The notes beneath the pieces were generated by a model. The model searched no databases, was not told the DNA's origin, and saw only the letters and a program-made list of their open reading frames with translations. From Gaiellaceae bacterium (GTDB lineage Bacteria; Actinomycetota; Thermoleophilia; Gaiellales; Gaiellaceae): a stretch of 64,000 nt of DNA. Where the stretch lies: positions 17,142 through 81,141 of the forward strand of contig DASWEE010000144.1 in NCBI GenBank assembly GCA_036394915.1. Reading direction: 5' to 3'. Shown piece by piece: positions 15,607 to 58,542 of the stretch. The position numbers and the translations under genes were made by a program. Numbering within the stretch: position 1 is the first letter of the stretch; every line of letters begins with the position of its first letter.

Positions 15607-16284
15607 GTGAGGATTATCGCGGGCACCCGCAAGGGCCATACGATCTACGCCCCAAAGGGAATGGAAACGCGCCCCACCGGCGACCGTGTCCGCGAGGCGG
15701 CGTTCAACCTGATTGGGCCCGTCGACGGCGCCTCGGTTCTCGATCTGTACGCCGGCTCCGGTGCGATGGGGCTGGAGGCGCTCTCGCGTGGGGCCGACCG
15801 CGCCGTCTTCGTCGAAAGCGACCGCGACGCGTCCCGCGGGATCGAGCGCAATCTCGAAAAGCTGGGGCTGACCGGCGCCCGTGTCGTCTGCGACGACGTC
15901 CTGCGCTTCCTCGCCTCAGAGCGGGGCAGCTACGACCTCATCCTGGTCGATCCGCCCTACGAGATGGTTGAATCCCTGCAAATGCGGCTTTCGCATTACT
16001 TGCCGGCGCTGCTGGCCGAGAACGGGCTCGTCGTCTTCGAGACCTCGGCGCGCGACGAACCGGAGCTGCCGCTGGCCCAGCGGACGAGCCGGCGCTACGG
16101 CTCCGCCCGCCTGACGCTGTTCGAGCACTTCTCGCGTTCCTCGGGCCCCACTGGCGGTTCGGGGCCGGAGGGGATAGTGCTCGGCACAGCCCCGGAGAGC
16201 ACCGGGCCGCCAGTGGGGTCAGGCGGCTCCGGAGGCCGGCTTCGCCGGCCGGGAGGAGCTGCCGGCGAGGGACGTGAGGAATGA
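15607..16284 (+). CDS. rsmD: 16S rRNA (guanine966-N2)-methyltransferase RsmD; the last ~45 codons read through a repeat element
   Basis: 'RPTGDRVREAAFN', 'LDLYAGSGAMGLEALSRGA', 'LVDPPY'. The ORF has no stop until the TGA overlapping the coaD ATG. Confidence 0.85.
   Translation: MRIIAGTRKGHTIYAPKGMETRPTGDRVREAAFNLIGPVDGASVLDLYAGSGAMGLEALSRGADRAVFVESDRDASRGIERNLEKLGLTGARVVCDDVLRFLASERGSYDLILVDPPYEMVESLQMRLSHYLPALLAENGLVVFETSARDEPELPLAQRTSRRYGSARLTLFEHFSRSSGPTGGSGPEGIVLGTAPESTGPPVGSGGSGGRLRRPGGAAGEGREE
16130..16279 (+). repeat. 150-nt structured palindromic repeat, copy A
   Basis: Aligns with 52397..52546 and 57478..57627. Core 'ggggccggaggggatagtgctcggcacagccccggagagcacc'. Helices CTCGCGTTCC/GGGACGTGAG, CCCCACTGGCGG/CCGCCAGTGGGG, GGCCGGC-ttc-GCCGGCC. 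Confidence 0.9.
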
Positions 16285-16796
16285 ATACGGCCATCGTCCC
16301 TGGGAGCTACGACCCGGTCACATTCGGCCACTTGGACGTGATCACGCGCGCGGCGGCGATCTTCGACCGCGTCGTCGTCGGAGTCGTCCGCGACCCTCAT
16401 CACAAGGGGACGATGTTCTCGGTCGAGGAGCGCGTCCAGTTCCTGCGCGACGCACTTGCGGAGAACGGCAACGTCGAGGTGGATGTGTTTTCAGAGCTCG
16501 TGGTCGACTTTGCGCGCCGTTGGGGCGCGAACACGATGGTCAAGGGCTTGCGCGTGATCTCCGACTTCGAGTGGGAGTTCCAGATGAACCATCTGAACCG
16601 GACGCTGGCGCCAGACGTCGAGACCGTCTACGTGATGGCGAGCCCGCAGTACAGCTTCGTCTCCTCGAGCGGCGTGAAGGAGATCGCCTCCTTCGGGGGA
16701 AAGGTGGACGAGTTCGTTCCCCCCAACGTCGCAGCCCGGTTCGCCGAGCTGTTCCCCGGCGGTCGTCCCGGTGCGCCCGTCAACCCGCAGGAGTAG
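16281..16796 (+). CDS. coaD: Phosphopantetheine adenylyltransferase
   Basis: 'AIVPGSYDPVTFGHLDVITRAA', 'SSSGVKEI'. Confidence 0.95.
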   Translation: MNTAIVPGSYDPVTFGHLDVITRAAAIFDRVVVGVVRDPHHKGTMFSVEERVQFLRDALAENGNVEVDVFSELVVDFARRWGANTMVKGLRVISDFEWEFQMNHLNRTLAPDVETVYVMASPQYSFVSSSGVKEIASFGGKVDEFVPPNVAARFAELFPGGRPGAPVNPQE

Positions 16797-48454: not shown

Positions 48455-51388
48455 GTGCCACTGACGCTTCTCGCCGGCCCGGCGAACTCGGGCAAGGTGG
48501 CGTCCCTGCTCGAGCGCTACCTGGCCGCGCTCGACCAGGATCCGGTTCTGATCGTGCCGAACCGGCCGGACGTCGACCGCATCGAGCGCGACCTCCTTCG
48601 TCGCTCTCCTGCGCTCGTGGGCGGCTCGATCGGGACGTTCGCCGACCTGTTCGAGCGGCTCGCGCGAGCTGACGGCGGCTCCCGGCCGGTTGCAACGGCC
48701 GCCCAGCGCGCGCTCGTCGTCCGCAACGCGCTCGCGCGCACGCATCTGAACGGCCTCGGGCCGTCGTCTCGCTTCCAGGGCTTTTCCGAGGCGCTCGTCC
48801 AGGCGCTCGGCGAGCTCGAGTCGGGCCTGCTCGAGCCGGACGACCTCGAGGACGAGAGCCTCGCCGGCCTGTACCGCGCCTACCGGGGCGAGCTCGACCG
48901 GCTCGGCCTCTGGGACCGCGACCTCGAGCGGCGCTACGCGGCCGACCGGGTCGCCGGCGAGCTCTCCGCCTGGGACGGCCGTCCCGTCTTCGCGTACGGC
49001 TTCGAGGACCTGACCGGAGCGGAGTGGGCGCTCTTGGAAGCTCTCTCCGCCCGTGCCGACGTCACCGTCTCGCTTCCGTACGAGCCGGGGCGCCCGGCTT
49101 TCTCCTCGCTGGAACGGACGGCCGCCGACCTCGCGTCGCTGGCACGCGGGCAGATCGAGGAGCTCCCGCCCGGCTCGACGGAGTGGACGCGGCCCGCGCT
49201 CGCCCATCTCGAGCGCGCGCTGTTCTCCGACGCCGCTCCCGCCGCGCCGCCGCTCACCGGGGAGCTCCGCCTGCTCGAAGGCGCAGGCACCCGAGCGACC
49301 CTCGAGCTCGTCGGCGAGGAGCTGCTCGAGCTGCTACGGAACGGCACCCCGGCGGACGAGATCGCGATCGTCTGCCCTGCGCTCGACCGCATCCGCGCGC
49401 CGCTCGAGACCGCCTTCTCGACGCTCGGGATCCCGTTTGCGGTCGAGGCTCGCCTGCGTCTGCCGCAGACGCCGTTCGGCCGCGCGCTCCTGTCGCTGCT
49501 CCGCTTCGTCTGGCTCGAGGGGGATCGTCCCGACCTCTACGGCTATCTGCGCTCCCCGTACTCCGGCCTGACCCGCAGCCACGTCGACTACCTCGAAGGG
49601 CGCCTGCGCGGCCGTGCCGTCCAGACCCACGAGCGGACAGAGGAGGAGACGCTGCGTCTGCGCGGGAAGCCGCTGCCGGTGCTCGCGGAGGTGCGCGGCG
49701 CGCCGCCGCTCGACGCCGTCCGCAACCTCGCCACCGCGATGCTCCGGGCAGCCTACGGGCTCGAGGCGCCGCCGGTCGGCGAGGGCGCCCGGCTCGACCT
49801 GCGCGCGCACGAATCGGTCACGCGGCTCCTGGACGAGCTCGAAGGCTGGGAGCAGCTCGGCGAGCACCTCTCGCGGGAGGACGTGGTCGGCGCGCTCGAG
49901 CGGACGACGGTGCGGACGGCGGCGGCGCACGAGCCCGGCCGCGTCCACGTCCTCGACCTGATGCGCGTGCGCACCCGCCGCTACCGCGTCGTCTTCGTAC
50001 TCGGGCTCGAGCAGGGCGGCCTGCCGCGGAGAGGCCGAGCCTCTCCGTTCCTCGACGACGAGGCCCGCACCGAGCTCGACCGCCTCAAGCGCGGCGCGCG
50101 CCTGTCCAGGCCCGACCCTGTCTCGCGGGAGCGCTACCTCTTCTACACCGCCTGCACTCGCGCGAGCGAGCGCCTGTTCCTCGTCCGGGAGGCAGCGAAC
50201 GACGACGGTTCGCCGCGGGAGCCGGGCCCGTTCTGGGACGAGGTCCGCTTCCTCTTCGATCCGGACGAGATCGAGCGCTGGACGACGCGGCGGCGGCTGT
50301 CGTCGCTGACCGGGCCGCTCGAACGGGCGCCGACTGAACGGGAGCGGCTTCGCGCTCTCGCCGCGGTGGCCGCGCAGGAACGCGAGACCGCAGCCGCGAT
50401 CGCGCGCGCGAACGGCTGGGAGCGGAAGCTGGATCGGGCTCGTACGGCCTTCGAGCGCCCGACGGAGCTCCGTCATCCGGCGGTGCTCGAGGAGCTGCGG
50501 TCGAAGCAGACGTTCGGCGTAACCGAGCTGGAGGTGTTCGCCGACTGCTCGTCGATCTGGCTGATCGACCGCCTCGTCGGCCCGCGCACGATCGACCCTC
50601 AGGTCGACGCCCGCCTGCGCGGGACGATCGCCCACCAGGCGCTGTACAAGTTCTTCTCCGGCCTGCCCAAGCGCCTGGGCGCCGACCGCGTCGAGCCGGA
50701 GCGGCTCGAGGAGGCGCTCGCGTTCCTCGGCGAGTGCCTGCAGGAGGCGCTCGAGGGCGGCCTCTGGCTCGAGCTGACCGACCTCGAGCGCAGCGAGCTC
50801 GAGCAGGGTCTCCGCCGCGACCTCGAGCACTTCGTCCGCGCCGAGGCCGAGAGCGGGCTTTCGCTCGTCCCGCGCCGGTTCGAGGTCCTGTTCGGCTCGG
50901 AGCGCTCCGCCCCCGAGCTGCAGTCCGGCCTCGATCTTGGCGGGTTCGCGCTGTCCGGGAAGATCGACCGGATCGACGTCGACCCGTTCTCGGCCCGCGG
51001 GATCGTCCAGGACTACAAGTCGGGAAAGACCGCGTTCTCGGCGGCGAAGATCGAGTCCGAGCTCAAGCTGCAGATCCCGCTGTACATGCTCGTCCTGCGC
51101 GACCTCGTCGGGATCGAGCCGCTCGGCGGCCTCTACCGCGCCCTCGCCGGCGAGCGTCCGGCCCGCGGCCTGCTGCGCAAGGAGGCGAAGGCCGATCTGC
51201 CCGGCTTCAGCTCGAAGGACTATCTCGACGAGGAGGAGTTCTGGGGGCAGGTCGAGACCGCGCGCGAGCGCGGTGCGGCGCTGGTCGGGCGGATCCGAGA
51301 GGGGGACATCGCCCACGATCCGAAGGGCGGCTTCCCCTGTCCCTCCTGGTGCGAGCTGTGGCCGATGTGCCGGGTGTCCAGAGCATGA
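48455..51388 (+). CDS. addB: AddB-type helicase-nuclease subunit (PD-(D/E)XK nuclease with Fe-S cluster)
   Basis: N-terminal degenerate Walker A 'LLAGPANSGK', nuclease 'GKIDRIDV...IVQDYKSGK', Cys cluster 'FADCSS'...'CPSWCELWPMC'. Confidence 0.85.
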   Translation: MPLTLLAGPANSGKVASLLERYLAALDQDPVLIVPNRPDVDRIERDLLRRSPALVGGSIGTFADLFERLARADGGSRPVATAAQRALVVRNALARTHLNGLGPSSRFQGFSEALVQALGELESGLLEPDDLEDESLAGLYRAYRGELDRLGLWDRDLERRYAADRVAGELSAWDGRPVFAYGFEDLTGAEWALLEALSARADVTVSLPYEPGRPAFSSLERTAADLASLARGQIEELPPGSTEWTRPALAHLERALFSDAAPAAPPLTGELRLLEGAGTRATLELVGEELLELLRNGTPADEIAIVCPALDRIRAPLETAFSTLGIPFAVEARLRLPQTPFGRALLSLLRFVWLEGDRPDLYGYLRSPYSGLTRSHVDYLEGRLRGRAVQTHERTEEETLRLRGKPLPVLAEVRGAPPLDAVRNLATAMLRAAYGLEAPPVGEGARLDLRAHESVTRLLDELEGWEQLGEHLSREDVVGALERTTVRTAAAHEPGRVHVLDLMRVRTRRYRVVFVLGLEQGGLPRRGRASPFLDDEARTELDRLKRGARLSRPDPVSRERYLFYTACTRASERLFLVREAANDDGSPREPGPFWDEVRFLFDPDEIERWTTRRRLSSLTGPLERAPTERERLRALAAVAAQERETAAAIARANGWERKLDRARTAFERPTELRHPAVLEELRSKQTFGVTELEVFADCSSIWLIDRLVGPRTIDPQVDARLRGTIAHQALYKFFSGLPKRLGADRVEPERLEEALAFLGECLQEALEGGLWLELTDLERSELEQGLRRDLEHFVRAEAESGLSLVPRRFEVLFGSERSAPELQSGLDLGGFALSGKIDRIDVDPFSARGIVQDYKSGKTAFSAAKIESELKLQIPLYMLVLRDLVGIEPLGGLYRALAGERPARGLLRKEAKADLPGFSSKDYLDEEEFWGQVETARERGAALVGRIREGDIAHDPKGGFPCPSWCELWPMCRVSRA

Positions 51389-54300
51389 GCGCCGCCGCCC
51401 CGAACAGGGAACAGCTCGCGGCGATCGAGGCGCCCGGCGTCGTCTTCGTCTCCGCGGGCGCAGGCACCGGGAAGACAACCGTGCTCGTCGAGCGCTACGT
51501 GCGCGCGGTCTGCGAGCGCGGCCTCGACATCGAGTCGATCCTCGTCATCACGTACACGGAGCGCGCCGCGGGCGAGCTCTGGAGCCGGATCCGCGCGCGC
51601 CTCGTTGAGCTCGGTCGCCACGACCTCGCGCGCGAGCTGGACGGCGCCTGGATCTCGACGATTCACGGTTTCTGTCACCGGCTCCTGAAGGCCCATCCCT
51701 TTGCGGCCGGGATCGACCCGCGCTACCGCGTGCTCGACGAGAGCCAGGCTCGCGTCGTCCAGAGCGAGGCGCTGCAGGAGGCGCTGACGGCGTTTTGTGC
51801 CGGCGCCGATCCCGAGCGGTTGCGGCTGCTCGCGACCTACGGCGCGCGCGGCCTGCGGCGGATGGTGACCGGCGCCTACGAGACGCTGCGCTCGGCCGGC
51901 CGTCCGCTCGAGCTCGAGCTCGGCGGCGACTCCGGGCTCGGGGAGCGGGTCGCCGAGCTCCGCGAGGCCGCTCGCTGCCTGCTGGACGAAGGCCCAGACG
52001 AGACGGTTGAGCGCCTCGTCGAGCTGCTGGACGGCTCGCCCACCTCCGAGGAGCTGCTCGACCTGTCCGGCTACGCCGCCAAGGGCCGTGAGCGCGTCGC
52101 GACCTACGAGGAGGCGCGGCGCGGGGTCGAGCAGGCAGCGCTCGACGAGCTGGCGCGCCGCGACCGCGACCTGCTGCAGGAGCTGCTCGCCGGCTTTGCA
52201 GTCGCCTACCGCGCCGCCAAGGACCGCGAGTCGGCGCTCGACTTCGAGGATCTGCAGCTGTACGCGCGCGATCTCCTGCTGAACGACGAGGAGGTCCGCG
52301 ACCGCGAGCGGTGGCGGTTGCGCTCGATCATGGTCGACGAGTTCCAGGACACGAATCGGCTCCAGTGCGAGCTAATAGACCTGCTCGCCGGAGACACCAC
52401 GCGTTCCCGGGGCGCCGCTGGCGGTGCGGGGCCGGAGGGGATAGTGCTTGGCACAGACCCGGAGAGCACCGTGCCGTCAGCGGCGTCAGGCGGCGGCGGA
52501 GCCGGGCTCCGCCCGGCGGGAGCCGACGCCGGCCGGGGGCGCGTGGAAGAACTGTTCTTCGTAGGCGATGAGTTCCAGTCGATCTACCGCTTCCGCCACG
52601 CCGACGTCGAGGTCTTCCGCGAGCGGCGCGAGCAGACGGGGGGCGTCTTGGCGCTGACGGAGAACTACCGCTCCCGCCCCGAGGTGCTCGAGGTGATCAA
52701 CCACCTCTTCTCGGGCGACTTCGGCGAGTCGTTTCAGCCGCTCTCCGCCGCCGGCCGCTTCCCCGACCCGGCCTTCGGCCCCGCGGTCGAGCTGCTCGTC
52801 ACCGACAAGTCGACCTACACCGGCACCGGCATCCACTGGAGGAAGGCGGAGGCCAAGCACGTCGCGCGCCGGCTGCGCGAGCTCGTCGACGCGGGTGAGG
52901 CGACCCCGGGGGAGATCGTGCTCCTGTTCGCCGCCGGCACCGACGCGAGGCTGTACGAGGACGAGCTGCGCGCCGTTGAGCTGCCGACGTTCCGCGCGAC
53001 CGGGCGCGACTACTACAGCCGCCAGCAGGTCGTCGACCTGCTCGCGTACCTCCGGCTCCTGCACAACCGCTACGACGACGAGGCGCTCGTGACCGTGCTC
53101 GCGTCGCCGTTCGTCGGCGTCTCGAACGACGCGCTCGTCCTCCTGCGCCGAGCCGCCGGCCGCCGGCCGCTGTACGCGGGGATCGAGCGCGGGCTGCCGG
53201 AGGAGATCGAAGACCGCGACAGCCGGCTGTTCCGGGCCTTCCGGCAGCGCTACGAGCGGCTCGCCGAGCAGGCCGGGACGCTCTCGCTCGAGCGCCTGTG
53301 CGAGCAGATCGTGATCGAGCACGATTACGACCTCGCCGTGCTCGCCCAGCGGGACGGCCGCAGGCGTTACGCGAACATGCGCAAGCTCGCGCGGCTCGCC
53401 CGCTCGTACGAGGAGCTGCGCGGGCGCGAGATCGAGGGGTTCGTCCGCTTCGTCCGCGAGCAGGACACCGTCGGCGCCTCCGAGCTCGAGGCGGTGGCCG
53501 AGGAGGAGGACACCGACGTCATCCGCCTGCTCACGATCCACTCCGCCAAGGGGCTCGAGTTCAAGGTCGTCGTCGTCGCGGACGCGGGGCGTGACCGCTC
53601 GCCGTCGTGGGGGGACGAGGTGCTGGCGCTGCCCGACGGGCGCCTCGGGTTCAAGGTCGCGCACCCCGCCACCGGCAAGCGGATGGCGACGAGCGACTAC
53701 GAGGAGGTCAAGGAGGCCGAGGAGGAGGCCGAGAAGGCGGAGCGCCGCCGCCTCTACTACGTGGCAATGACGCGGGCCGTCGACCGGCTGATCGTGTCGG
53801 GCTCGATCGACCCCTCGAAGGCGACCGCGGCCGAGACCCCGATCGGCTGGGTGCTCGAGCGGCTCGGGCCGGAGGAGCTCGACCAGGCCGGCGACGGGCC
53901 GCTGGAGGTCGAGCGGGGCAATGCCCGGCTCGTCCTCCGCGTCGACCGCCACGCGGTCGAGACCGGCGAGGCCGTCGAGGCGGTGGAAGAGGAAGCGCAG
54001 CTGTCGCTGTTCGCCGCCGGCGAGCCCGTGCCGCCGCGGGTCGAGGTTCCGGCGCTCCCCGAGCTCGTGCCCCTTCCGGCGCCGCCCGATTTCCGGATCC
54101 GGCGGCTCTCCTACAGCGCGCTCGCCCTGTTCGAGCGCTGCTCCTACCGCTTCTACGCCGAACGGGTCGTGGGGCTGCGGCCGGGACCCGCGGCCGGCGA
54201 GGTCTCGGGAGAGGGCGGACTGGCCGCGACCGAGATCGGCGACGCCGTCCACGCGCTGCTCGAGCGGATCGACCTGGCCGCGCCGCGTGTTCCGGACGAT

Positions 54301-54882
54301 CTCGAGGCGGTCGTGCATGCCCGCTATCCGCAGGCGACGGCGGAGGAGGTCGCCCGCATCCGCGCGCTCGTCGCCGCCTACTGCGGCTCGGAGCTGGCTG
54401 CGCGTGTCGCCGCGCTCTCGAGCGCTGCGGCCGAGCGGCCGTTCGCGTTCGAGCACGACGACGTCCTCTTCCACGGGCGGCTGGACGTGCTCTACCAAGC
54501 GGAGGGGCGCGCGCTGGTCGTCGACTACAAGACGAACGTGCTCGGCGAGCGGTCGCCGGAGGAGGTAGTCGAAGGCGAGTACCGGGTCCAGCGGCTCGTC
54601 TACGCGATCGCGTGCCTGCGGGCGGGTGCGGACGAGGTCGAGGTCGTCCACCAGTTCCTGGAGCGGCCGGATGTGCTTGTGTCGGCGACGTTCGAGCGCG
54701 CCGATCTCCCCGGCCTCGGGGCCGAGCTCTCGGAGGCGATCGCGCACATCCAGGCGGGCGAGTTCCGCCCGACGCCGAGCGACTTCGTTTGCCCGGATTG
54801 CCCCGTCCTCGGCGTCGTCTGTGCCGGGCCGGCGCTGCGGGAGCACCATATGGAGTCGGCCGCAGCGTTCTCAGCGAGCTAA
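51385..54882 (+). CDS. addA: AddA-type UvrD-family helicase-nuclease, with a 50-codon repeat insertion
   Basis: 'SAGAGTGKTTVL', 'VDEFQDTN', 'VGDEFQSIYRFRHA', 'TIHSAKGLEF', 'YVAMTRA', C-terminal nuclease 'GRLDVLY...VVDYKT'. ATGA overlap with addB. Confidence 0.9.
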   Translation: MSAAAPNREQLAAIEAPGVVFVSAGAGTGKTTVLVERYVRAVCERGLDIESILVITYTERAAGELWSRIRARLVELGRHDLARELDGAWISTIHGFCHRLLKAHPFAAGIDPRYRVLDESQARVVQSEALQEALTAFCAGADPERLRLLATYGARGLRRMVTGAYETLRSAGRPLELELGGDSGLGERVAELREAARCLLDEGPDETVERLVELLDGSPTSEELLDLSGYAAKGRERVATYEEARRGVEQAALDELARRDRDLLQELLAGFAVAYRAAKDRESALDFEDLQLYARDLLLNDEEVRDRERWRLRSIMVDEFQDTNRLQCELIDLLAGDTTRSRGAAGGAGPEGIVLGTDPESTVPSAASGGGGAGLRPAGADAGRGRVEELFFVGDEFQSIYRFRHADVEVFRERREQTGGVLALTENYRSRPEVLEVINHLFSGDFGESFQPLSAAGRFPDPAFGPAVELLVTDKSTYTGTGIHWRKAEAKHVARRLRELVDAGEATPGEIVLLFAAGTDARLYEDELRAVELPTFRATGRDYYSRQQVVDLLAYLRLLHNRYDDEALVTVLASPFVGVSNDALVLLRRAAGRRPLYAGIERGLPEEIEDRDSRLFRAFRQRYERLAEQAGTLSLERLCEQIVIEHDYDLAVLAQRDGRRRYANMRKLARLARSYEELRGREIEGFVRFVREQDTVGASELEAVAEEEDTDVIRLLTIHSAKGLEFKVVVVADAGRDRSPSWGDEVLALPDGRLGFKVAHPATGKRMATSDYEEVKEAEEEAEKAERRRLYYVAMTRAVDRLIVSGSIDPSKATAAETPIGWVLERLGPEELDQAGDGPLEVERGNARLVLRVDRHAVETGEAVEAVEEEAQLSLFAAGEPVPPRVEVPALPELVPLPAPPDFRIRRLSYSALALFERCSYRFYAERVVGLRPGPAAGEVSGEGGLAATEIGDAVHALLERIDLAAPRVPDDLEAVVHARYPQATAEEVARIRALVAAYCGSELAARVAALSSAAAERPFAFEHDDVLFHGRLDVLYQAEGRALVVDYKTNVLGERSPEEVVEGEYRVQRLVYAIACLRAGADEVEVVHQFLERPDVLVSATFERADLPGLGAELSEAIAHIQAGEFRPTPSDFVCPDCPVLGVVCAGPALREHHMESAAAFSAS
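52397..52546 (+). repeat. 150-nt structured palindromic repeat, copy B (in-frame inside addA)
   Basis: Helices CCACGCGTTCC/GGGGCGCGTGG, CGCCGCTGGCGG/CCGTCAGCGGCG, GCCGGGC-tcc-GCCCGGC. The core matches copies A and C. Confidence 0.9.
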
Positions 54883-56648: not shown

Positions 56649-57031
56649 AGCTGGAGACGCACCGGAAGACCGAGCTCGTCGACATCACGCCGCTCGTGGC
56701 CGAGGCGGTCACCGGACAGGAAGGGAAGGCCGCGGCGCTGTTCGTCCCGCACACCACCGCCGGGATCGTCGTGCAGGCGAACGGCGGCCTTGCCGTGACG
56801 CACGACGTCGAGAGCGCGCTCGAGCGGATCGTCGACGAGGACTGGCCGTGGAAACACACCGAGGAGGAAGGAGATCGGAACCCGTGGTCGCACGTGCGCT
56901 CAGTCCTCACCGCCAGCTCACTGATCATCCCGCTTCGGGGCGGCGAGCTCGCGCTGGGATCGCTGCAGTCGATCTTCTTCTGCGAGTTCGACGGCCCGCG
57001 CGAGCGCAGCGTCTACGTCAGCGTGCTGTGA
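56636..57031 (+). CDS. yjbQ: YjbQ/UPF0047 family (secondary thiamine-phosphate synthase) protein
   Basis: 'ELVDITPLV', 'VPHTTAGIVVQAN', 'HVRSVLTASSLIIPL..GELALGSLQSIFFCEFDGPR'. Confidence 0.85.
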   Translation: MRELKLETHRKTELVDITPLVAEAVTGQEGKAAALFVPHTTAGIVVQANGGLAVTHDVESALERIVDEDWPWKHTEEEGDRNPWSHVRSVLTASSLIIPLRGGELALGSLQSIFFCEFDGPRERSVYVSVL

Positions 57032-57464
57032 GCGCCACGAGCAGCCCGCCGTCGGCATCGTAGGCGGGGAAGAAGTCCGCCTTCACGGCTTTCTCGTGCC
57101 CGGAGCTGGTCCGGATCCGGAGCTGCTCGCCGAGCCGCCGCACTCCCCATTCCAGCGACAGCTCGACCGGATTCTTGCCGTCGTTCCAGCCGCTCAGACC
57201 GAACGCGTCGATCACGTTGCGGCCGATCAGGTCCGGCTCCTTGAGCCCCGTCAGCTCGAACACGCCGCGGCCCGACGCCAGGATCCGCCCCTGGCCGTCG
57301 CAGGTGACGAACCCTGTGCTCGGCGCGGGGTAGTAGTCGTCCATCAGCTCGAACAGGAAGCCGAAGCCGCAGCGGTGGCAGGCGACGGCCTGGTCGCTCA
57401 ACCCCTCCACGCGGTCGATGTCGATCGACCGCTCCTTGCAGTTCGGGCAGATGAAGTACGGCAT
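57018..57464 (-). CDS. Zinc-ribbon plus PAS-like domain protein (148 aa)
   Basis: 'CPNC..(21)..CHRC', then 'GFVTCDGQGRILASGRGVFELTGLKEPDLIGRNVIDAF'. Confidence 0.65.
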   Translation of the reverse strand: MPYFICPNCKERSIDIDRVEGLSDQAVACHRCGFGFLFELMDDYYPAPSTGFVTCDGQGRILASGRGVFELTGLKEPDLIGRNVIDAFGLSGWNDGKNPVELSLEWGVRRLGEQLRIRTSSGHEKAVKADFFPAYDADGGLLVALTAR

Positions 57465-57477
57465 GCCTCGATCGTAC

Positions 57478-57627
57478 CCTCGCGTTCCTGAGACCCCGCT
57501 GCCGGTGCGGGGCCGGAGGGGATAGTGCTTTGCACAGACCCGGAGAGCACCGTGCCGGCAGCGGGGTCAGGCGGCGGCGGAGCCGGGCTTCGCCCGGCGG
57601 TAGCCGTCGCCGATCAGGGGCGTGAGG
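57478..57627 (+). repeat. 150-nt structured palindromic repeat, copy C (intergenic, abuts the corA stop)
   Basis: Helices CCTCGCGTTCC (57478-88)/GGGGCGTGAGG (57617-27), CCCCGCTGCCGG (57494-505)/CCGGCAGCGGGG (57555-66), GCCGGGC (57582-88)-ttc-GCCCGGC (57592-98). Confidence 0.9.
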
Positions 57628-58542
57628 CTAGATCCAGCGCTTGCGGCGGAAGTACCACAGCTGGAAAGCGGTCGTGACGATGATCAGGAACCAGGACCAC
57701 GGATAGCCCCAGACGCCGAAGCGGGTGATCTCGGGGATGTGGCGGAAGTTCTGGCCGTAGAGCCCGACGATGAAGGTCGGGACGAGCAGCAGCGACGCCA
57801 CTACGGTGAGCCGCTTCATCACCTCGTTCTGGTCGTTGGCGACCTTCGCCAGGTAGTAATCGCGGACGCTGCCGAGCAGGTCGCGTGAGTAGTCCATCCC
57901 TTCGCTTGCCCGTAGCGCCTTGTCGTAGGCGTTCCCGAACGCGATCTCGACGTTCTTCGTGAAGAGCGTGCCCGTGTCGACGTCGACACGGTCGTCGACG
58001 ACCTCGCGGATCGCGTCCCGCGTCGGGGAGAGCGTTCGCCGGATGTGGAGCATGTCGTGCCGGAGATCGGCAATCCGCCGCCGGATCTGCTGCGGCTTCC
58101 AGTCCTCGATGTGGTCGTCGAGCTCCTCGATCTCGTCGTTGAAAGCGTCGATCAAGTCAAGGTAGTCCTCGACGACCCAGTCGACGAGCCGGTAGACGAC
58201 CATGCCGGAATCGTCCGTGTCGCGAATCGACGCCTTGCAGCGCTCGATCTCGAACGGCTCTCCCTTCTCAGGTGTCTTCCGCACCGTGACCACCGCGTCC
58301 TTGGTCACGACAAGGTCGATCTCCTGGTAGTAGACGCGGTCCTCCTCTTCGACCGCGACCGCGACGAGCAGGATCCCGAAGACGTACTCGCCCTGCCCCT
58401 CGAGCCGCGGGCGCGGCTCGTCCTCGTGCCTCGCCGGCTGCATCAGCAGCTTGAGCGCGCCCTCGTGAATCGACTCGGGCAGAGCGTCGTGGAGCTCCTT
58501 CTCGCTCGGATCGAGAAGGTCGATCCAGTTCACTCCCGGCAT
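57628..58542 (-). CDS. corA: CorA family divalent-cation transporter with GQN in place of GMN
   Basis: Cytoplasmic funnel domain, two C-terminal TM helices, 'LYGQNF'. Confidence 0.9.
   Translation of the reverse strand: MPGVNWIDLLDPSEKELHDALPESIHEGALKLLMQPARHEDEPRPRLEGQGEYVFGILLVAVAVEEEDRVYYQEIDLVVTKDAVVTVRKTPEKGEPFEIERCKASIRDTDDSGMVVYRLVDWVVEDYLDLIDAFNDEIEELDDHIEDWKPQQIRRRIADLRHDMLHIRRTLSPTRDAIREVVDDRVDVDTGTLFTKNVEIAFGNAYDKALRASEGMDYSRDLLGSVRDYYLAKVANDQNEVMKRLTVVASLLLVPTFIVGLYGQNFRHIPEITRFGVWGYPWSWFLIIVTTAFQLWYFRRKRWI

Follow-up and report, generated by a model that had tools for sequence, protein, structure and literature searches.

A folded repeat in a Gaiellaceae contig

A 64,000-nucleotide (nt) stretch of contig DASWEE010000144.1 from a Gaiellaceae bacterium (assembly GCA_036394915.1, positions 17,142 to 81,141 of the forward strand), referred to below as the window, contained three complete copies of a repeat of about 150 nt, all on the + strand: copy A at 16130-16279, copy B at 52397-52546, and copy C at 57478-57627. 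These copies belong to a real, well-supported, and previously undescribed family of structured, non-autonomous mobile repeats. The three copies had been pointed out in a preliminary description of this DNA that was made from the letters alone, and a covariance model (R1, built from 20 copies of different genomes) recovered exactly these three in the 64 kb, with scores of 143.7 bits for copy A, 138.2 bits for copy B, and 153.9 bits for copy C. The reverse strand scored 20-28 bits, compared with 138-154 bits for the copies themselves, and an unfiltered search with the model found no further or degenerate copies above noise in the window. The copies were dispersed, 36 kb and 5 kb apart, and showed 84% column identity when aligned together with their flanks. 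A 21-nt core occurred three times in the window and not once in 100 shuffles.

Copy C is a 150-nt intergenic element, antisense to both of its neighbors. Its closing helix (P1) is 14 base pairs (bp) long and is drawn from the two ends of the element, with positions 57478-57491 as the 5' strand and positions 57614-57627, which carry the GGGGCGTGAGG end, as the 3' strand; compensatory changes were found at 14 of the 14 pairs. Enclosed by P1 are the long arm P2 (57492-57568), made up of a stem, an internal loop, GGG/CCC, and an apex, and the arm P3 (57570-57611). The conserved core GGGGCCGGAGGGGATAGTGCTTTGCACAGACCCGGAGAGCACC spans positions 57509-57551, and its invariance in the wider sample stems partly from the method of collection. 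The 3' end of copy C meets the TAG stop codon (CTA on the + strand) of a minus-strand CorA-family gene (57628-58542), and a minus-strand gene for a 148-amino-acid (aa) protein with no Pfam hit (57018-57464) starts 13 nt beyond the 5' end. Some 2 kb away from copy C (~58.6-60.5 kb of the window; loci L035-L038, positions 1-752) was a gene with Pfam matches to baeRF_family10, baeRF_family2, and acVLRF1, which are bacterial eRF1-like families.

Copies A and C were present in about 20 independent metagenome assemblies of the same species. All of these assemblies carried both copies, which are thus fixed within the species, and their recurrence excludes the assembly artifacts that the preliminary description had raised as a possibility.

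The structure shared by the copies is a three-way junction, in which P1 closes the element and P2 and P3 form a longer and a shorter arm. P2 consists of a covarying stem with a conserved tandem U·G/G·U, followed by an internal loop (CGGA/GGAGA), GGG/CCC, and the apex GUGC-nnn-GCAC. P3 consists of a covarying outer stem, an internal loop (GGA/GGUA in copy C and GGA/GGGA in most copies), and a 7-bp GC hairpin with a UYC loop. The sequences quoted earlier for the closing helix, for a 12-bp part of helix 2, and for helix 3 were all correct, as were the apex GTGC-nnn-GCAC and its loops TTT, TCG, and TTG in the three window copies. The internal loops of P2 and P3 are alike, both being purine-rich and lying around a GC hairpin, and they may represent two binding modules for one trans-acting protein.

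Covariation was evaluated against slid controls. Among the 20 copies, 94.5% of pair cells were paired, compared with 34-43% in the slid controls; double changes were found in 40 of 57 pairs, and the covariation score was 0.485, compared with at most 0.115 in the controls. Among the 75 distinct copies from the whole collection, 95.4% of pair cells were paired (35-42% in the controls), double changes were found in 49 of 57 pairs, and the score was 0.485 (at most 0.078 in the controls); this larger alignment was fitted to the model and hence leans towards the structure, yet the gap to the controls is still very large. The proposal that this is a repeat family whose several helices are held by compensatory change was therefore upheld well beyond the three copies from which it had been made.

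The fold is also specific to one strand. For the window copies, predicted RNA folding energies were -115 to -118 kcal/mol on the + strand (z -7.8 to -10.9) and -92 to -96 kcal/mol on the - strand, and with DNA parameters for a single strand the values were -60 to -63 and -46 to -51, respectively. On the + strand, G·U pairs accounted for about 9% of paired cells, while A·C pairs, which correspond to G·U on the other strand, accounted for less than 1%. Both kinds of folding energy and the pair counts agree with the strand specificity that had been deduced from G·T pairs in the window. The G·U and A·C figures were equal in copies that are sense and in copies that are antisense to the neighboring host genes. 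This independence of host gene direction means that the asymmetry belongs to the element itself, and it is evidence against selection acting on host transcripts. In the case of copy C, which is flanked by two minus-strand genes, host transcripts would bear the weaker strand. These data point to a single-stranded form of the element, either DNA or an RNA of its own, as the object of selection. A search of the window against Rfam gave nothing at gathering thresholds and, in a permissive E-value mode, only noise of at most 21 bits from microRNA-type hairpin models, in agreement with the earlier failure to recognize a named RNA family.

When one genome per species was scanned with an exact pattern, 25 loci were obtained, all of them in metagenome-assembled genomes (MAGs) labelled Gaiellaceae, Gaiella, or unclassified Actinomycetota/Actinomycetes; another 52 loci, from soil, peat, and fen, came from a scan of metagenomes. 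The model, applied over all loci, gave a total of 84 copies, 75 of them distinct, at 61 different sites, so the family inferred from one window extends to relatives. Copies were found only in Gaiellaceae-type MAGs and in soil and peat metagenomes. Both collection scans used the apex pattern, and the invariance of the apex is therefore partly by construction; copies that were reached by other routes (L046, P0165, and P0192) had a diverged apex. P3 was substituted by other hairpins in some lineages, and only one locus (L012) held two units, 29 nt apart. Atypical copies included one of 227 nt with a 77-nt internal insertion (L061:7775-8001) and others in which the 3' strand of P2 was replaced or the element was shortened to 103-129 nt (L023/L066, L021, L089, and L068). 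Three of these, L021, L089, and L068, were truncated copies.

Comparison of the peptide encoded by the element with 1.84 billion representative proteins gave 21 matches, mostly short open reading frames (ORFs) of 52-142 aa; this census shows that the element is rare, and it told little about host proteins. Public gene calls (P0121-P0141 and P0145-P0147) included many short ORFs (52-142 aa) within the element, and some RsmD entries ended part-way into the element on very short contigs. This suggests that the repeat breaks assemblies and misleads gene callers. A literature search on repeats in Gaiella found nothing relevant.

Insertion sites in genes and at gene boundaries

Copy B lies in frame within the ORF of an AddA-like UvrD-family helicase-nuclease (50734-54882, + strand; Pfam UvrD-helicase, UvrD_C, and PDDEXK_1), between motif II (VDEFQDTN) and motif III (VGDEFQSIY). 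It is translated as TRSRGAAGGAGPEGIVLGTDPESTVPSAASGGGGAGLRPAGADAGRGRV, and the host protein gains 51 aa. Helicase orthologs with 90-95% identity read DLLAG|EELFFVGDEF without the insert. Comparison with the empty site in L045 (GCC GGC|GAA GAG) showed that the window is longer by 153 nt, or 51 codons (52393-52545), with a 2-nt (GA) ambiguity at the junction. Escherichia coli UvrD (3LFU) aligned on both sides of the insert and had a single residue in its place. An ortholog with 72% identity carried an element at the same loop in the same orientation, and another had a diverged copy that is reversed but likewise in frame. All three in-gene copies had an uninterrupted frame, which is what simple translation would predict. 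The true start of the helicase is probably downstream of the ORF start, since gene callers give 1123-1174 aa.

A PDDEXK_1 protein that resembles an AddB partner is encoded upstream of the copy B host, making this an AddAB-type helicase-nuclease locus (48455-54882). Copy B and L047:3549-3701, which are helicase copies in the same orientation, share a rare P1 variant (CCACG/CGTGG), though the closer orthologs (90-95% identity) are empty. Possible causes of the shared variant are separate insertion events in which the end of the element depends on the site, and loss of the element from the closer lineages. Copy B was also considered as an intein, an intron, or a ribozyme; these identities were rejected because the insert is too small, its translation showed no intein splice-junction residues, and there was no match to Rfam ribozymes or introns.

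Copy A lies at the boundary of rsmD and coaD. The rsmD ORF (15607-16284, + strand, 225 aa) reads through the element in the same frame as that used in copy B, and its last 50 codons are copy A, which gives RsmD a C-terminal tail of 50 aa. The read-through ends at the native TGA that overlaps the ATG of coaD (ATGA), so coaD (16281-16796, + strand), directly downstream, retains its native start/stop overlap with rsmD. Most RsmD orthologs were 173-180 aa long and represented the empty state, in which the protein ends in ...FEHS* (at 175 aa) and the stop codon is part of an ATGA or GTGA overlap; a few were 225 aa long with the full element, and two were 231 aa long with a variant apex. Two further orthologs had in-frame internal deletions that kept the 4-nt overlap with coaD: a remnant of 30 nt that retained only the two P1 strands (L102, 900-958) and one of 75 nt without the P2 apex (L103, 900-1003). 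Comparison of orthologous loci, a test put forward in the preliminary description, thus revealed presence/absence polymorphism, with clean empty sites in close relatives.

Two classes of site dominated the 61 sites: sense copies at operon junctions and antisense copies. Eight independent operon junctions share a layout in which the RTGA stop of the upstream gene precedes the element by exactly 4 nt and a GTG within the 3' end of the element (CGTGAG) serves as the start of the downstream gene. The ORF that runs from the old RTG through the element, here called the relay ORF, was open in all eight junctions, with a length of 51 codons at seven of them and 52 at the other. Its stop is the TGA within the GTGA at the 3' end, and the GTG of that GTGA is the new downstream start. 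With an overlap at each end, the relay ORF thus joins two 4-nt start/stop overlaps where there was originally one. Translation of the relay ORF would open P1 and bring ribosomes to the downstream start, which lies in P1 behind a purine-rich stretch. One such junction, pstP-rodA, was empty in five contigs, which have a single RTGAGC, and filled in L018 and L098, where the locus reads GTGAGC-tt-[GCTCAC...GACGTGAGC]-gcgcgc.

At 18 antisense sites, the stop codon of a minus-strand gene was found 0-7 nt inside the 3' end of the element. The 3' end of P1 varied in this class (CGTGAG, CGCTAG, or CGTCAG), always with a complementary change in the 5' strand, and the terminal helix bears the start or stop codons of the adjoining genes. 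One copy (L054:359-508) was found between convergent genes, with both stop codons inside the element, 5 nt at each end.

Other copies lie beside tRNA genes: the 3' ends of tRNA-Cys and tRNA-His meet the 3' end of an element, and tRNA-Lys begins 3 nt after the 3' end of another. Arrays from peat and fen (L012:600-1000 on the minus strand, L025/L056, L082, and L078) contained copies with a variant P3, each preceded by a fragment of 27-29 nt. The fragments resemble the 3' part of a tRNA (T arm, 3' strand of the acceptor, and sometimes CCA) and differ from unit to unit. ARAGORN found no tRNA in these arrays, even when the elements were deleted. The possibility that the L012 elements are insertions that split tRNA genes was rejected, since deletion with boundaries shifted by up to 6 nt per side gave no tRNA.

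The frame read in copies A and B (+0) was open in 66% of copies and the -2 frame in 84%, compared with 46% in shuffles, and the +1 frame was closed by a TAG in the core. Read-through is often possible but not strongly designed, and selection for open frames is weak. New copies are gained at gene boundaries and, in rare cases, within genes, and the surviving copies leave their neighbors intact, whether by in-frame read-through, by a kept ATGA overlap, or by a relay ORF.

Movement and competing explanations

Target-site duplication, the other feature to be sought at orthologous loci, was not found at a fixed length. The longest word shared by the left flank and the right junction averaged 4.56 nt, compared with 4.13 nt in mismatched pairs, and a single geometry was seen in a subset only. 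Flank repeats were 0 to 9 nt long, the ambiguity at the helicase empty site was 2 nt, and neither a 3-bp nor a 9-bp duplication yielded consistent boundaries across the helicase and junction sites.

A different regularity was seen in the junction class and in L072 and L062. At these sites a native hexamer is followed, after 2-4 nt, by its inverted copy, which is the 5' end of the element, and the hexamer recurs to close the element. Among the junction copies, the 3' end of the element is the native RTGAGC and the 5' end is its complement; a matching hexamer feature was not seen at the right junction. The pattern fits a 5-6-bp duplication plus a matching 5' end. By analogy with the insertion sequence (IS) IS608, it would also fit insertion 3' of a target that equals the 3' cleavage sequence of the element and is paired with a guide. 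This second interpretation would in addition explain the strand-specific fold, the clean empty sites, and the common orientation of copies within a contig, which was observed in five of the six contigs with more than one copy. Junction copies tended to be mutual nearest relatives even when P1 was excluded, consistent with a sub-family that has its own target preference.

The preliminary description had noted the lack of a transposase nearby. This was confirmed by the gene tables around copies A and C, which had no transposase within 3 kb, and by clustering of ORFs at the other sites: no recurrent transposase, integrase, or reverse transcriptase was found in 424 flanking ORFs or in annotated neighborhoods. 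Judged from their sequences, the clustered flanking ORFs included only housekeeping families (ABC ATPase, histidine kinase, NlpC/P60, acyl-CoA synthetase, HypD, and FO synthase). About 700 kb of flanks held no parent IS with the ends of the element; whole genomes were not searched.

The most likely explanation of these data is an undescribed family of non-autonomous mobile elements of about 150 nt, confined to the Gaiellaceae (Thermoleophilia, Actinomycetota), in which one strand folds as a three-way junction. The presence/absence polymorphism, the internal deletions, and the truncated copies argue for selfish DNA. The element probably moves as a single strand. Its strand-specific fold may be needed for movement as single-stranded DNA of the HUH/Y1 type (compare IS200/IS605 and REP/RAYT) or, less likely, as RNA, and the terminal helix may help to choose or match the target. 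The interpretation given in the preliminary description was supported overall, including the character of a miniature inverted-repeat transposable element (MITE) or a REP-like repeat with a terminal inverted repeat.

A bolder version of this explanation, which seems doubtful at present, is that the outer closing helix is a programmable address, the 5' end being complementary to the target hexamer and the 3' end repeating it. An RTGAG sub-family would then home to start/stop overlaps, rebuild both signals, and install the 51-codon relay ORF. The element would, on this rather unlikely supposition, be a natural, miniature transposon of the single-strand kind, directed by a guide and aimed at translational-coupling sites. 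The peat arrays of copies joined to T-arm and acceptor fragments of tRNAs might represent a related use of tRNA-like ends.

Several observations weigh against the favored explanation of a structure-dependent mobile element that moves as a single strand. The hexamer target rule fails at many sites, including copies A, B, and C of the window, which have no flank repeat longer than 2 nt. No mobilizing enzyme was found near the copies, and no genome-wide search for one was made. GC skew in the window was near zero, too weak for a test of replication-strand bias, and the sample of copies is biased towards one apex sequence. In three deeper relatives (L015, L017, and L048), a copy is retained between one and the same pair of convergent genes across protein identities of 64-77%, with P1 helices that are quite different and fully paired. 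Such deep orthologous occupancy fits either persistence or function, and an alternative is repeated insertion at a hot spot, as in the helicase loop. When copy A was compared with its ortholog in L088, where the flanks are about 19% diverged, 19 element positions differed: there were 4 double compensatory changes, 5 pair-keeping changes, 5 changes at unpaired positions, and 1 pair-breaking change. This pattern suggests that the fold is under selection at the site itself, something for which a purely selfish element would have no need. It is plausible that the fold is selected in place at this sense site since an unfolded or frame-shifted insert would harm expression of rsmD and coaD.

Orthologous maintenance of this kind would also be expected of a functional structured RNA that is used by the host, as a cis element or a small RNA that acts in 3'-end stability, termination, or translational coupling, with spread being secondary. 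The very strong covariation, the compensatory changes between orthologous copies, and the retention of the same convergent neighbors all favor this possibility, as does the location of copies right after stop codons and tRNA 3' ends, where terminators and stabilizers sit. Very recent differences, seen between near-identical orthologous copies, mostly break pairs, and older ones are compensated, which also favors it. However, although the fold belongs to one strand, some 18 copies run antisense to the gene that they abut, and several, including copy C, lie between co-directional minus-strand genes whose transcripts carry the weaker strand; the excess of G·U pairs is identical in sense and antisense copies. 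Furthermore, close relatives lacked the element at all three sites tested, copies decay through internal deletion, the flanks share no promoter, and Rfam gave no match. A host-used RNA is therefore considered unlikely.

An RNA-mediated retroelement, in which an RNA of the + strand would be the intermediate and a reverse transcriptase would act in trans, as with a short interspersed nuclear element, is less probable still. A strand-specific fold that works with G·U pairs would suit an RNA intermediate, the length of the flank repeats is variable (0 to 9 nt), and the arrays of the peat lineage carry the 27-29-nt tRNA 3' fragments (T arm plus acceptor), but such fragments were found at a minority of sites only. 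There was no reverse transcriptase near any copy and no A-rich or other tail, internal deletion was observed instead of a series of 5' truncations, and antisense copies would require a promoter of their own.

The target preferences of IS5 and IS481 are resembled by the stop-codon-like targets (TGA, CTAG, and TTA) at which copies are found. A classical double-stranded MITE, moved by a DDE transposase that reads terminal inverted repeats and leaves a fixed target duplication, could account for these targets, for the ~14-bp inverted repeat made by the ends (P1), and for direct repeats at some sites (GAGTTC in L011, TCAACG in L076, GTTAC in L005, and CCGCCGG in L017), but it is very improbable, because 14 of 14 P1 pairs covary and no end sequence is conserved for a transposase, the repeat length is inconstant with a weak overall signal (4.56 vs. 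4.13) and no repeat at the best-defined (helicase) site, G·T pairs with almost no A·C pairs indicate one-strand selection, the internal arms covary although a double-stranded mechanism does not require it, and no parent IS with these ends was present in the ~700 kb of flanks.

Relation to known repeats

Among known repeats, the Rickettsia palindromic elements (RPE) are about 150 bp long, palindromic, and non-autonomous, and they insert in frame into unrelated protein genes, adding a peptide (PMC10969869). The Gaiellaceae family is similar in that it inserts in frame and is translated, adding 51 aa to the helicase and 50 aa to RsmD, with the reverse-orientation helicase copy in frame too. In a comparison made by description rather than with RPE sequences, it differs in the phylum of its hosts and in being found mostly at gene boundaries, not within genes. 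It also differs in its three-way junction, its strong strand asymmetry, and its weakly coding-friendly design (the frame is open in 66% of copies and in 46% of shuffles).

Mycobacterial interspersed repetitive units (MIRU) likewise belong to actinobacteria. Their insertion sites in operons are start codons, and they carry an internal ORF that is coupled to the neighboring gene by a 4-nt overlap, which minimizes harm (PMC12548453). The eight junctions with a relay ORF of 51-52 codons, an RTGA start, and a GTGA end are closely comparable, and copy A likewise keeps its ATGA. MIRU units are 46-101 bp long, and their use in locus typing implies tandem arrays, whereas the Gaiellaceae family consists of dispersed single copies of 150 nt with a complex fold. 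Its copies are also found in antisense, next to tRNA genes, and inside ORFs, and coupling by overlaps is not applicable to those that are antisense or adjacent to tRNA genes.

REPINs and REP-BIMEs are non-autonomous hairpin repeats of short extragenic spaces that persist vertically and are thought to be moved by a single-copy RAYT transposase (Y1, HUH) acting on folded single strands (PMC3116915, PMC3333891). Low copy number, restriction to a lineage, and orthologous persistence are shared with the family described here. Its alignments, in contrast, contain no GTAG or CGTC tag, P2 and P3 differ from each other and so do not form a REP doublet, and its copies overlap coding sequence.

The IS200/IS605 elements, including IS608, and their miniature derivatives have ends that fold on one strand, cause no obligatory target duplication, insert 3' of a short target that is paired with a guide, and excise precisely (PMC3201880, PMC5027513). 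The IS608 transposase binds the hairpins, the sites of cleavage and insertion are recognized through base pairing, and the element leaves no trace when it excises (PMC3201880, PMC5027513). The family is similar in that its structure, and the selection on it, belong to one strand, its empty sites are seamless, and, in the junction group, the target RTGAGC equals its 3' end and complements its 5' end. It differs in that its two ends pair with each other rather than forming only separate subterminal hairpins, and in that the target rule fails at many sites. No tnpA or tnpB with the ends of the element was seen near the copies, and no search aimed at a Y1 (HUH) transposase was made.

Repeats of the Correia, ERIC, and BOX types are small, are co-transcribed with their neighbors, and form long RNA hairpins (PMC10969869). 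None of them has the three-way junction or the relay ORF of the Gaiellaceae family. They have conserved inverted-repeat sequences, and Correia elements have a TA duplication.

In its behavior the family mixes traits of several known kinds: in-frame insertion into genes as in RPE, a coupled internal ORF at start codons as in MIRU, and strand-specific hairpins, persistence in a lineage, and seamless sites as in REPIN and IS200/IS605-type elements. By the features tested, the family is not a member of the MITE, MIRU, REPIN, or Rfam families. Like a MITE it is small (150 nt) and has no transposase gene of its own, and its terminal repeat is conserved over 14 bp in pairing but not in sequence; the lack of a fixed duplication and of a conserved inverted-repeat sequence distinguishes it from a classical MITE. 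Dispersal as single 150-nt units sets it apart from MIRU, and the absence of a REP doublet and of a GTAG or CGTC tag sets it apart from REPIN. The kind of family is known, and what is new is the combination of a three-way junction under one-strand selection, start and stop codons that form part of the closing helix, and a relay ORF.

This is the first interspersed repeat family described for the Gaiellaceae, a little-studied and abundant soil lineage. The covariance model can be used to mask or annotate the repeat, which gene callers now report as extensions or insertions of about 50 aa in real proteins (RsmD and the AddA-like helicase) and as spurious small ORFs. A single element unites three known routes by which selfish DNA can be harmless, namely in-frame read-through, kept 4-nt overlaps, and a relay ORF. 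As a result, the element offers a small, natural setting for studying how translation is coupled across an RNA structure of great stability. Should the agreement of its ends with the target stem from guide-based targeting, programmable single-strand insertion of the IS608 type would extend to a non-autonomous element of the Actinomycetota.

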